A stretch of 64,000 bases of DNA from Neodothiora populina (taxonomy: Eukaryota): positions 1,054,001 to 1,118,000 of the forward strand of contig NW_027191405.1 in NCBI RefSeq assembly GCF_041146345.1, written 5' to 3'. The notes beneath the pieces were generated by a model that had not been told where the DNA came from, made no database searches, and saw nothing but the letters and a program-made list of their open reading frames with translations. Made by a program: the position numbers and the translations under genes. This document shows positions 47,691 through 57,373 of this stretch, one piece after another (position 1 is the stretch's first letter; each line of letters begins with the position of its first letter).

Positions 47691-48703
47691 TCAGGGCTCT
47701 CCCGGCCCACTGACCTTGATCTGTGGCGTCGGTGCCGGTGGGCTGCCATTGGCGTTCTGTCGAGCACGTCGCCATTTCAACACGGGTACTCTTTGATCAC
47801 CCTTTCGAGAAGCGAGTACCAGTCAGCGTTTGATTCCTTAAATCAATTTTGGAGATTTCCGTCATTGTTCCAACGCAAGATTTGACAAGATGTACATACC
47901 TTGATCTCAGTGGGTGCTTCACTACCCAGCACAAGTAGGTCATCGTCTTCCTCAAATTTCCATGTCCGTATTTGTACGTCTTTCAGCCAGCCAGGAAGAT
48001 TGCAGACCTGGAAAGTATGTCTGAGCACTTCTTCCCTCCCAGGTCCCTCGTCGCTGATGTAGTACGGTCCGGCGTAACAGAAACTCCTCTTGCCCGCTTC
48101 TGCCCACTGCGCTTCTTCTCCTTCGCCCCTTTTGAACGGTGCTTGACCAGGTATCATCATGTGTGCGCTCATGTAACCGTCCGGTGTATACATGATGATG
48201 CCGGTGACAGCCTTCGTCATGGGATATGTGGGCCGCAGAATCTTACATGATGGAGTAGGATACGCGACATAAGACTCGAGAAGCCAGGTGCCTATTAGAC
48301 GCTCTCGTAAAGTCGGTCGCGGTGACGGACTTGAGCGGGTGGACAACGTGTACAAGTCACCATTCAGATCAACTTTTGGCTCCGTGATAGTGATGCTTAG
48401 GTCATCATTTACGAACAGGCTGTCATGTCGTCGGATGCAGTCCACCTCGGGGGTGGTTCTCGGCGTTGCAGGGGCGTATGTGCTCTTTGTCTGTGAGCTA
48501 TAGCTAAGACGTCGTTCATGAACATCTGCCATGGCAGATGAGGTAGGAATAGGAGACGGCAAACGGGCCTTTGATGGTCGGGATTCTACCGCCTCGATCC
48601 CTCTGGACCTCGACCCGGATCTTGATCTTGATCTGCGATAAGGCAGAACTCTCGGAACCTGCAGATACCGTGTCTTCGTGGTACAAATTACTTCGCTAGG
48701 CAT
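47691..48703 (-). CDS. Lipocalin-like domain protein with a disordered Ser/Arg-rich N-terminus (2 exons)
   Basis: LIGTWLLESY, GIIMYTPDGYMSA, YAGPYY; last exon VPVLKWRRA ends at TGA 47691-47693. Confidence 0.75.
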
Positions 48704-50273
48704 GAGGACGACTTGAGCTGCTCAACTTGATGAAACTACGAATGCGCAATATATCAAAATCGAGGTTGGTGAATATGGGATTCTCGTGCTGCTTCCTTCA
48801 CGATGAAAAGGCCATAGCACGGGATAACAAGAGACTGCATGTGACAGTGAGGAGACATGACTGTAGCGACGAGAACTTACTAGCATTACGGCTACTCATG
48901 TTCCGGGACTGGTCGTGTGGACATCAAAGTAGTGATCGAGAATGAGCCAAATTTCGGAGAATGCGGAGTGTCCGAGAAGCATTGACGGGCGTGCATACAA
49001 TTCTTGACCAAGGTCACCCATAAAATCGCTGGTTTATTCGAGGGCCGGGTCCATTGACCAGGTATATGGCAGCTTGGACATATCGATCCATGTCGAATAT
49101 TGCCTATCGCGGAACGATGATGAGCACATCGTCTAAATCATATTACATCATATTCACGTGGCCCGATAGAAGGATGTCAGAAGCGTCGACAATCACGAGT
49201 AATCACCTACATAAAAGTGGAGGATCAGACACGATACATTGCCTTTCCGCATGCTGGGATGATCGAAATTTTGCAGGACAGCCTTGTCATGCGCCTTGCC
49301 GCCCTACACTGTGTCTAAGTAAGGTAAGGTAGGCAGTCATGTGGGGGTGAGATGTGAGGGATGGATGATAGACAGCTCGCGGGCAAACAATCACCCGAGA
49401 TCGTAGGCCAAGACCTAGGGGCTACGGTCCGCCAACCCGAACACTATCTGGTGTTTTTGATCTTGGGGTAAATAAATAGTACGCTCTTGGCAGCCTACCT
49501 CATTGTAAGTACACCTTACCCTACTCTGGAAGGATCCCATGACTCTAACTCCCTTCCAAGACGTTGTGGCTATAGAGCTAACGTCGGCAGATCTTGCTTG
49601 TGGATTGAACATGTCGGGGACAACCGGATGATTGCAGTAATTCCGCTGTCGTAACAGCAATTGTAGATGAGGGGCATCAAGCCACGATTTGGAGCTCTAC
49701 CTGGTCAGTACCGTGCCTCTGGCCAGAACACTGCGTTCTTCCTCTATCATCAACGCGTAGGTCCTCAATAGCTGTGAACTTAGTATGAGTGGGTAAGTAC
49801 AAACTATTATTTTTACATGTCGAGGCTTTCCATCGCGAAGAGGACTAGAGAGAACCACTGGTTTCAGGCACCACTTAGCTTGACTTGGCCTGAGAGTTGT
49901 AAGCCTCAATTTCAAGACCATCGCTGTCTAAGCCCCTCCCTGCATATCCGCGTGTCCGTCGTCCATAGGGAAGTCGGGACGAATCACCCAACCCCCTCCA
50001 ACAGCTCCGCGTGTCCGTTACCACCATTGATACTTGTCAATCTTTCAAACGGTATGGATTCCTGTCCTGTGGGCCCTTCTGGCCGGTCTATCAACAATAC
50101 CCCGCGCTCCTCAGCTCTTCAGGCGGGGTTGGAGAAGCTGCAAAAGTCAGAGATAAATGTCTGCATGTCCTGCCTACCAGTCGAGTTAGTCCTCCATATT
50201 ACACAGCTCGATTAGACATCAGCAGTACAGTACAATCAAGACAATACCCAACCCGAAGCACCTACAAGTCACA

Positions 50274-52696: not shown

Positions 52697-52702
52697 TATA
52701 AA
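52697..52702 (+). promoter_or_regulatory. Putative TATA box of THI4
   Basis: TATAAA followed by a pyrimidine-rich tract, about 100 bp upstream of the first 5'UTR donor. Confidence 0.5.
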
Positions 52703-53148
52703 TACTGGACTTGTTCTTCTGCTTTGCCGTTTCTTTTTGATCTTCCTATCCATCTGAGTATCTGAAAAGTATCACTCCAACAATCTCAACAACCACAAGT
52801 AAACTTTCCCCATTCCTGGGCCACTCAGCTAGCTCGCTACCTAGCTAGCCAGCTAGGTGCAATTGGCATGGGCTGTCCAGAACGTATACTGACATCTTCG
52901 TGCATGGAAATAGGCCATCAACCTCCACGGTACGGGTTCACTCCCATGCTATGGACGGACATGAATGAATACAACATCAGTTTTCGCGTCGGATGAGCTG
53001 GGGGAGTTGTGAGGATGGGAGGAAAGAGTCCTCGTCCCTGTCCCTCCCTTCCTCACCAGCCCTCCCAGATTCAATCCTGCATAGATTTGATCGAGATCAG
53101 GTATACAAATGCAACAACAATCAAAAATCAGCAACGTGGGTTTCTGAT

Positions 53149-53267
53149 GCATGTGCCGGTGTTCGACGTCTTTTCCTCTACTCTTAAAGAAGAAGTGGAA
53201 AAGCGTCGTTCTGAGATTATACGGCTTGAACTTGATCTCTGGATAATACCAGCGAAAGGATTCATGC
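53149..53267 (+). ncRNA. TPP (thiamine pyrophosphate) riboswitch in a 5'UTR intron of THI4
   Basis: P1 GCATG...CATGC, CCGGTGTTCG, extended P3 (GACG-T-CTTTTCC...GGAAAAG-CGTC), CTGAGA, ATACGG, GAACTTGAT, P5 CTGG-ATAATA-CCAG, CGAAAGG. Branch point GCTGAC at 53318 and acceptor AG at 53330-53331 lie just downstream. Confidence 0.96.
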
Positions 53268-53338
53268 TCTGTCCAAAGCTCACCTCTGAAAACCCCCAGG
53301 GAGAAAAAAAGGGTAAAGCTGACATTCGCAGGTCTTGA

Positions 53339-54412
<1,074 letters not shown>

Positions 54413-55898: not shown

Positions 55899-56630
55899 TT
55901 GGTTTATCCAACACAAGTCTGTGTGAGCAAGGCGGAATGCGCGCACATGGAAAAGAGGCAGGCTGATGTTGTTATAGACGATAGATAACACAAGTAAAGG
56001 ATCAATGAGGAGTGAATGACATGTGAAAGCTGCTGCTGCTCGTAGGGCTGAGCTGGACTGACTCGTTTCTGCTCTGCTTCACGTCACATGCTGACTCGCC
56101 GTGGATCATCCCACCTTGATGTTTCTATGTGAAGACAGTCTGCGGTACACGCTTCTCCTCGTCAGTGATATTGTGATGACAGAGGAAGCGACCATACGAA
56201 ATGTAGTGCGAATACACAATGACCATATTTCAGGAAAGTCATTGGCATCAATCACCGTCTGCTTCACGCCAATTGTGTCTGTTGCGGAAAATGTCCACCT
56301 AGTTCTTCGCAGTTAAGCATGGAATTAATTAATAATCAACCACTACTCTACTGCCGAGGCACAATGGCTCCATCTTTGTGGTCTACTAGACAGCAACTCC
56401 CCTGTAATCACCTCCTCGACCCTCTCCTCTCCTTTTCCATATGAACATTCGTGACAATCGCTCATCCAATCGCCCAAGACTTCAGTGCCCCGAAAGACAA
56501 AAAGTGAACAGGGTCGCCCTCGAGATCTGATCCACCAAAACCCACCCTCGAGCAACCAAGCCCACAAAGACGCAGAAAACAGAAGAGCAAAAACCCACCC
56601 ACCGTGGCGTTCCGACAAACCCTCTCAAGA

Positions 56631-57373
56631 ATGACGACCTACCGCATCGAGATCGTAAGCGACGTCGTCTGCCCCTGGTGCTACGTGGGCAAAAACCGCC
56701 TCGACGCCGCCATCGCCTCCCACAAGACGCGATTCCCCCAGGACACATTCAGCACGACCTGGGCGCCCTTCTACCTGAACCCCGACGCGCCCAAGCAATC
56801 CGTCGACAAGCAAGCCATGTACGAGAGCAAGTTCGGCGTCCAGCGCACCCGCATGATGCAGATCCGTCTGGCGCAGATCGGCAAGTCCGTGGGCATTGAG
56901 TTTGGGTTCGGCGGCAAGACGGGAAATACGAGGGATGCGCACAGGTTGATCCAGCTGGCGAAGACCAAGGGCGAGGAGACGCAGACGAGGGTCGTCGAGA
57001 GGCTTTTCAATGCTTATTTTGAGAAGAACCAAGATATCACTGATCATGCGGTTTTGAGCCGCGCTGCTGTCGAGGGGGGTATTGGTGCGGAAGAGGTCGA
57101 GGAGTGGTTGGGTAGCGACAAGGGTGGGCCAGAGGTTGATAGGGAGGTCGCGCAGGCCAAGAGGAAGTTCATCTCTGGGGTGCCGAACTTCACCATTAAT
57201 GATGTGTTTGAGGTGCAGGTATGTTGTTCTGCGTTGAAACATTCGAATGTGAACAATCACTGACTGCTACTGAACAGGGCGCCGAGGAGCCGTCGGCATT
57301 CTTGGACATTTTCCGACAGATCAAACAAAAGTCCGAGGACACTTCTACTGTCTCGTCAGGCAATACTTGTTAA
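56631..57373 (+). CDS. DsbA/FrnE-like thioredoxin-fold protein (2 exons)
   Basis: IEIVSDVVCPWCYVG (CPWC), GNTRDAHRL, ISGVPNF; last exon ends at TAA 57371-57373. Confidence 0.92.

Follow-up and report, generated by a model that had tools for sequence, protein, structure and literature searches.

The gene at the center of this report is THI4, which encodes thiazole synthase and lies in a 64,000-nucleotide stretch of the Neodothiora populina genome, hereafter the window (contig NW_027191405.1, positions 1,054,001 to 1,118,000 of the forward strand, assembly GCF_041146345.1). Its identity, already proposed in a prediction made from the letters of the window (the original prediction), is borne out by Pfam Thi4 matches to both coding exons (E = 5.5e-23 for exon 1 and 5.6e-81 for exon 2), and its exon boundaries agree with those of related genes. 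An aptamer for thiamine pyrophosphate (TPP) can be recognized 90 nt upstream of the THI4 start codon at 53357, in an apparent intron of the 5′ untranslated region (5′UTR), flanked by donor, branch, and acceptor signals. The original prediction held that this aptamer controls the choice between two 5′ splice sites, and the signals it named are present on direct reading: the distal donor GTACGG at 52930, the proximal donor CAG/GTATAC with its G at 53101, the branch point at 53318 (GCTGAC, 53318–53323), the acceptor at 53331 (CAG, 53329–53331), and, between the donors, not just several ATGs but a counted six. Very probably, the locus is the orthologous fungal THI4 TPP riboswitch, in which a 5′UTR-intron aptamer governs 5′ splice-site choice. 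This central proposal is supported by the fit of the sequence, by the pairing found in relatives, and by donor use in one of them; it needs two amendments, an upstream intron and a second long-range helix.

A scan of the 801 nt from 52700 to 53500 against the TPP model of Rfam (RF00059, release 15) returned a + strand match at 53145–53278 (46.8 bits, E = 6.5e-8) that spans all 105 model positions. The aptamer that had been placed at 53149–53267 is thereby recovered at full length, though below the Rfam gathering score. Its architecture comprises P1 (53149–53153 with 53263–53267), P2 (53155–53158 with 53222–53225), a long P3 (53164–53208), the conserved CTGAGA (53211–53216; CUGAGA in the RNA), P4 (53231–53233 with 53256–53258), and P5 (53239–53242 with 53249–53252), together with the conserved P4–P5 and ...GCG motifs of the family. 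By this alignment, the segment is a full-length TPP aptamer, and it would be expected to bind TPP. In its full-length match, its P1–P5 architecture, and its conserved junction motifs it resembles the THI element that RF00059 describes; it differs from typical members in its score below gathering, its long P3 with a 38-nt insertion, its lack of P3a, and a short insertion in the junction between P4 and P5 (J4/5).

Relatives were drawn from metagenome collections and consist of 80 loci that encode close THI4 homologues (74–87% identity), 46 of them on short and 34 on long contigs. The 3′ half of the aptamer lies upstream of THI4 in 25 of the 46 short contigs and 27 of the 34 long ones; the other seven long contigs end too near the gene to judge. 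The same core of P1, P2, CTGAGA, and P4–P5 recurs in 33 distinct aptamer sequences, that of the window included. On reading the alignment, P2 shows an exchange of G-C for A-U between the window and the relative L071.

The original prediction also held that the aptamer can mask the proximal donor, and this pairing is confirmed by direct reading, by shuffled controls, and by the predicted fold. The segment GAGATCAGGT (53093–53102) is the reverse complement of ACTTGATCTC (53230–53239) except for one G-U, giving 10 contiguous pairs that cover eight exon-side nucleotides and the GT of the proximal donor. None of 200 dinucleotide shuffles of the upstream region gave an equally good contiguous helix abutting the donor. 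In the ligand-free minimum free energy (MFE) fold of 52914–53356 (−143.0 kcal/mol, z = −3.68), all 10 anti-donor pairs form, with a mean probability of 0.81, and the mean pair probability of P1 is near 0. Enforcing the aptamer costs 8.7 kcal/mol and abolishes both this helix and the second one described below.

The same pairing recurs among the relatives. From 81 sources (the window and the 80 loci) we excluded 35 that did not match the aptamer regular expression, eight with too short an upstream region, and six duplicates, leaving 32 distinct loci with the window among them. In 29 of these 32, the P4 strand can form a helix of at least 6 bp with the exonic flank of a GTR donor. The donors paired in this way usually read ...GATCAAG/GTA or ...TCAG/GTA and lie 105–260 nt upstream. 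Donor-helix scores of at least 6 were observed 21 times against 4.66 expected from shuffles, scores of at least 7 nine times against 1.43, and scores of at least 8 three times against 0.39; the window has the longest helix of the set. The strict criterion of this 32-locus test gave no donor helix in L017, L040, and L071. The feature by which Type I regulation is recognized, pairing of the P4 strand with the proximal donor, is therefore present in the window as 10 bp with one G-U, recurrent in relatives and contained in the MFE fold.

Several observations temper this picture. The locus counts are not independent events because the loci are related by descent. When large loops are allowed, RNAduplex separates the real pairing from shuffles only marginally (−20.6 vs. 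−16.2 ± 2.3 kcal/mol; 93 of 2000 shuffles equaled or bettered it); contiguous, local-helix scoring was adopted because RNAduplex with free loops is too permissive. The proximal donor GTATAC has no G at +5, and the distal donor is also off the usual fungal consensus. The proximal donors of relatives likewise lack the +5 G, and use of one such donor, GTACTT, is proven in L071.

Indeed, transcripts of this one relative bear directly on the proposed choice. The genomic loci L071, L076, and L077 match four short contigs at 98–100% identity. In L042, the proximal donor CATAG/GTACTT is joined to the acceptor and five upstream ATGs (uATGs) are kept; in L043, the distal donor CCAA/GTATGG is joined to the same acceptor and no uATG remains. 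L040 and L044 have lost the coding intron and kept the riboswitch intron. Both donors and one acceptor are thus used in the L071 species, alongside intron retention, and removal of the orthologous riboswitch intron is proven there. At the position of the distal donor, relatives carry GTACG, GTACA, or GTATGG. Where it is GTATGG (L001, L004, L050, and L071), the first uATG overlaps the splice site; the GTACGG of the window has no such overlap.

This arrangement is well precedented in the literature. In NMT1 and THI4 RNAs that have no TPP bound, P4/P5 nucleotides obstruct a 5′ splice site (PMC3597705). Type I regulation has been catalogued for THI4 in many fungi, and its origin has been placed in an ancestor shared by four Pezizomycotina classes (PMC5882874). 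Neurospora crassa THI4 and NMT1 both have TPP riboswitches in 5′UTR introns with at least two donors (PMC5997356). For Bcthi4 of Botrytis, alternative 5′ splice-site events have been described, and the THI4 mechanism was called "not fully studied" (PMC11900860, 2025). Nothing on splice-site control appeared in PMC4416257 or PMC8786325. The window resembles N. crassa NMT1 (THI5) in its 5′UTR-intron aptamer, its two alternative donors around upstream open reading frames (uORFs), and its single acceptor (PMC3597705, PMC5997356, PMC5882874), and in the pairing of P4/P5 nucleotides with the proximal donor that would form when TPP is absent. It differs in serving a gene of the thiazole rather than the pyrimidine branch and in having a probable upstream intron and micro-exon, an 80-nt hairpin, and a second helix that uses a strand of P1. 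It is closer still to N. crassa THI4 (NCU06110), Aspergillus oryzae thiA, and the Type I THI4 riboswitches (PMC5882874), with which it shares the orthologous gene, the aptamer position, and the predicted logic, a likeness between descriptions rather than between sequences. In N. populina, both donors would be used in a manner that depends on thiamine.

Table 1. Features of the THI4 riboswitch locus, in positions of the window
Feature	Position	Strand	Basis or remark
TATA-like box TATAAATA	52698–52705	+	sequence reading
Candidate extra 5′UTR intron (donor GTAAAC, branch-like ACTGAC 52888–52893, acceptor AATAG)	52799–52913	+	prediction
Putative 16-nt micro-exon between the candidate upstream intron and the riboswitch intron	52914–52929	+	prediction
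Distal 5′ splice site GTACGG	52930–52935	+	sequence reading; equivalents in relatives
Cluster of six uATGs (52946, 52951, 52961, 52965, 52993, 53015)	52946–53017	+	
Alpha-like element, predicted partner of the P1 3′ strand and tail	52948–52966	+	MFE fold, local-helix score, cross-locus complementarity
Stable inter-donor hairpin	52994–53073	+	folding vs. shuffles
Proximal 5′ splice site CAG/GTATAC, donor G at 53101	53093–53106	+	sequence reading, MFE fold
TPP aptamer	53149–53267	+	cmscan alignment to RF00059
Switch strand, part of P4/J4-5/P5 and of the anti-donor helix	53230–53239	+	
Alpha′-like strand (P1 3′ strand and 12-nt tail)	53260–53279	+	3′ end 52 nt before the acceptor
Branch-like GCTGAC (53318–53323) and shared 3′ splice site CAG (53329–53331)	53318–53331	+	
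25-nt 3′-exon leader with CTTGAAC (53334–53340)	53332–53356	+	
THI4 coding region	53357–54412	+	exon 1 53357–53705, intron 53706–53768, exon 2 53769–54412 including stop; 330 aa

The first amendment concerns a second long-range helix, overlooked by the original prediction, in which the 3′ strand of P1 and its tail pair with an element that begins 18 nt after the distal donor. Since it engages P1, this helix would compete with the aptamer, and it may have a functional role. Its core (52952–52966) consists of 8 + 7 bp around one bulged C, with three further pairs past an A-A mismatch. All 15 core pairs are present in the MFE fold, with a mean probability of 0.97, and the corresponding helix of L071 is predicted with pair probabilities of 0.97–1.0. 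RNAduplex proved noisy for this helix, and local-helix scoring was used instead; the score of 34 exceeds the maximum of 31 among 40 shuffles. In 19 of 28 loci, a GTAY stands no more than 35 nt upstream of the segment that pairs best with the P1 tail; position alone would predict 9.5.

A swap test provides the broader comparison. For each locus, its own P1 tail and the tails of other loci were scored against its own between-donor segment, taken as the 175 nt before the proximal donor. The 28 cognate combinations summed to 590 against 512.4 ± 15.8, a value reached in none of 50,000 permutations (z = 4.91), and thinning the set to 21 loci left z at 4.48. Reverse-complemented tails gave z = 0.75, a downstream region z = 0.93, and a more distant upstream region z = 1.6 (the same loci reach 3.87 in the real test). 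The signal is weaker across the whole 300-nt upstream region (238 of 20,000 permutations). These results suggest that a second long-range helix, built on P1 as in NCU01977, is present in THI4 riboswitch introns.

This helix might instead be a by-product, with P4/P5 masking of the proximal donor as the only pairing that matters, an account that we regard as quite possible, if a little short of an even chance. It would arise where a uORF start in purine-rich surroundings stands opposite two partners, the P1 CATG, which is palindromic, and an intron tail rich in pyrimidines. The element does carry uATGs in good initiation context (52951 and 52961; GCCATGG is common at this place in relatives), and these could alone explain its conservation. 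Merely reversed tails still gave z = 2.36 (288 of 20,000), and part of the signal must therefore reflect lineage-specific purine and pyrimidine tracts; in about half of the 28 loci the signal is weak or absent, with no advantage for the cognate tail. In addition, Li and Breaker call the P4/P5 mechanism of THI4 "different" from the alpha–alpha′ one (PMC3597705). These points count against a functional second helix. What argues for it is the orientation-specific part of the signal, the contrast between z = 4.91 and the 0.75 of reverse complements, together with control regions that stay flat. The 13 nt after CATGC suffice for z = 2.99 (49 of 20,000), examples that are not purine-rich covary as well (L009 and L071, for instance), and the predicted pair probabilities are high in both the window and L071.

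It is useful to contrast the second helix with its model. In NCU01977, a DUR31-type transporter gene, fewer than 60 nt separate the distal donor from alpha downstream of it, and the same limit applies between the acceptor and alpha′, which is the 3′ shoulder of P1 (PMC3597705); Li and Breaker (2013) set this mechanism apart from that of NMT1 and THI4 (same source). As there, the 3′ shoulder of P1 in the window is predicted to pair near the distal donor, at distances of 18 nt and 52 nt that are both below 60; this pairing and P1 cannot form together, and it is predicted to favor the distal donor. By comparison, the NCU01977 intron is a coding-region intron of 550–650 nt and that of the window is a THI4 5′UTR intron; the gene context of the NCU01977 type is the DUR3/urea-transporter family; the alpha consensus RGCGGYRRY was absent from the window on reading; and at least 11 continuous pairs there contrast with 8 + 7 around a bulge here. 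NCU01977 is, moreover, described as working without P4/P5 masking; the window has both helices. Thus, the window may work like NCU01977 without being a member of its type, since the consensus, the continuous pairing, and the gene context are not shared. A full-text literature search found no account of a long-range P1 pairing in THI4; its scope did not take in Cheah 2007 or Moldovan 2018, so an earlier description is possible. That THI4 riboswitches in general, the present one among them, combine two mechanisms regarded in the literature as alternatives, P4/P5 masking of the proximal donor and an alpha–alpha′-type helix whose element near the distal donor also holds the first uORF starts, is a proposal that we put forward tentatively, with more doubt than confidence. 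If it is true, low TPP would conceal the proximal donor and at the same time place the distal donor beside the branch point.

The transcripts raise a different question, namely, what the main repressed product is. It could be the transcript with the whole riboswitch intron retained, proximal-donor use being minor, if TPP binding slowed or blocked splicing, perhaps through structure imposed on the surroundings of the branch point. Among the relatives, transcripts that keep the intron are frequent, a fact that the original prediction overlooked: the aptamer is still present in 25 of the 46 short contigs, which are transcript-like by their length and missing introns, and within the L071 set, the only proven transcripts, L040 and L044 retain the intron. 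In the window, the fully retained form would hold 10 uATGs, and expression of A. oryzae thiA requires splicing of this intron (Kubodera 2003, as cited in PMC11900860). Nonetheless, the short contigs without the aptamer fall into 13 that have no uATG and eight that have three to seven, the latter being the expected products of proximal-donor use; one of these, L042, is proven, and among the seven further contigs, each with at least three uATGs, several carry GATCAAG shortly before the start codon, at the expected proximal junction. Retained contigs may also be nuclear precursors, some records may be genomic DNA, and a conserved masking complementarity would be purposeless if the proximal donor hardly mattered. 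Retention as the principal repressed form therefore seems somewhat unlikely to us, and it is in any case compatible with TPP-controlled donor choice rather than exclusive of it.

The second amendment concerns the leader. In the original prediction, distal-donor use by itself gave a short, translatable 5′UTR. Part of this holds, since splicing from 52930 would remove the six inter-donor uATGs, which proximal-donor use would keep and whose frames all end before the main ATG. Two more uATGs, at 52868 and 52904, precede the distal donor, so a uATG-free leader needs more than this splice, and the idea that the 52930 donor alone yields one was rejected. Both of these uATGs lie within the candidate upstream intron (Table 1). 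The leader could be freed of uATGs by removal of 52799–52913, by direct splicing from 52799, or by a transcription start after 52906. Transcription presumably starts ~30–60 nt 3′ of the TATA-like box; with a start assumed ~40 nt after TATAAATA at 52698, the only uATG-free isoforms are the one lacking 52799–52913 and the one spliced directly from 52799 to 53331, whose leader would be 84 nt long. We favor the upstream intron, whose predicted removal would leave a 16-nt micro-exon. L071 is arranged similarly, its micro-exon being 17 nt long, and the opening base of its transcript L043 is compatible with loss of the upstream intron, which amounts to one base of evidence. The "slightly more complex intron structure" reported for N. 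crassa THI4 (PMC5997356) fits such an extra intron.

If instead the productive splice ran from 52799 (GTAAAC) to 53331, or if transcription started after 52906, then 52930 would not be the key distal site or there would be no micro-exon. The direct splice does share the virtue of a uATG-free leader. This alternative appears improbable, because GTAAAC makes a weaker donor than GTACGG, because a GTAY donor precedes the alpha-like element by 7–25 nt in relatives, just as the 52930 donor precedes it in the window, and because the equivalent of the 52930 donor is used in L071.

Two side observations concern the leaders. L042, the proximal-donor transcript, keeps its small upstream leader intron, and L043, the distal-donor transcript, seems to lack it (again judged from one base), a difference that may point to coupled processing of the two leader introns in the L071 species. 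Separately, a CTTGA(A/T)C motif is conserved in the 3′-exon leader, in L002, L016, L025, L029, L035, L040–L042, L061, L068, L072, and others; the copy in the window is at 53334–53340. Among 50 distinct leaders, 24 have TTGA[AT] no more than 45 nt from the ATG, and 11 have CTTGAA. The leader motif is often the identical heptamer to the P4 strand of the aptamer and might pair with the end of the proximal 5′ exon. In the window, the TGA of CTTGAAC is the stop codon of several uORFs.

The aptamer itself has features that speak against a working switch. Its 46.8 bits fall short of the gathering score of 54.3 bits, and a whole-window Rfam scan at gathering returned no matches. A 2-nt insertion (53237–53238) on the 5′ side of J4/5 makes the spacing between the pocket G residues 20, and a G-G spacing of 18 is described as fixed and conserved (Mukherjee et al. 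2018, PMC5882874), which sets the window apart from the Type I THI4 members. When 15 related THI4 loci were scanned with RF00059, only three reached E ≤ 0.001, at 41.9, 40.6, and 37.9 bits, all below gathering. The score thus reflects how the general model fits this clade rather than decay, since that of the window tops those of these three relatives. The J4/5 insertion occurs in six relatives too (L003, L006, L009, L020, L031, and L067), with 2–3 nt and differing bases, and in the window its bases participate in the 10-bp anti-donor helix. L002 has an entire extra hairpin at this place. That the aptamer has decayed, with loss of TPP binding and constitutive removal of the intron, is barely credible: the low score and the J4/5 insertion are what could be said for it, and they are outweighed by a score above all three scoring relatives, core motifs and helices that are all intact, and the recurrence of the insertion with differing bases.

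The inter-donor region contains one further structure, the hairpin at 52994–53073 (−42.9 kcal/mol, z = −3.7, with one of 200 shuffles as stable), which buries a consensus-like GTGAGG at 53009. No second copy of it was found in the window. It looks lineage-specific, since the inter-donor interval of most relatives is much shorter. Matches of 52990–53080 to microRNA families (E = 0.05–10, far below gathering) were set aside as a mere reflection of this hairpin, and a scan for bacterial promoters and terminators was set aside because the gene is eukaryotic. Neighboring frames match Pfam Lipocalin_5 (47843–48721, − strand, E = 7e-23) and a DSBA-like thioredoxin domain (56508–57263, + strand, E = 1.5e-34); the remaining long frames around THI4 had no Pfam match.

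Taken as a mechanism, these elements would operate as follows. At low TPP, two helices would hold the aptamer open. In the first, the P4/P5 strand 53230–53239 would mask the proximal donor at 53093–53102. In the second, 53260–53279 would pair with 52948–52966, drawing the distal donor near the branch point and acceptor and looping out the intervening RNA. With 52799–52913 removed as well, the splice between 52930 and 53331 would then give a leader of ~100 nt free of uATGs, from which THI4 would be translated. At high TPP, the aptamer would close P1 and P4/P5, and both helices would dissolve. The proximal donor would then be used or the intron retained, at least six uATGs would stay in the leader, and translation of THI4 would be repressed.

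Overall, our analysis mainly confirms the standard Pezizomycotina THI4 riboswitch in this genome. For annotation, it points to a noncoding regulatory intron, to alternative 5′UTR isoforms, and to a probable micro-exon missed by gene callers. Since the Rfam gathering score misses the aptamers of this clade, routine annotation would overlook them. TPP riboswitches have also been considered as targets for antifungals (PMC11683625). The locus appears to be an ordinary member of a known riboswitch class, and its two-helix expression platform might be the only part that is new. If the second, P1-based helix is real in THI4 introns, it would tie together two published fungal mechanisms, an added value that would be modest.

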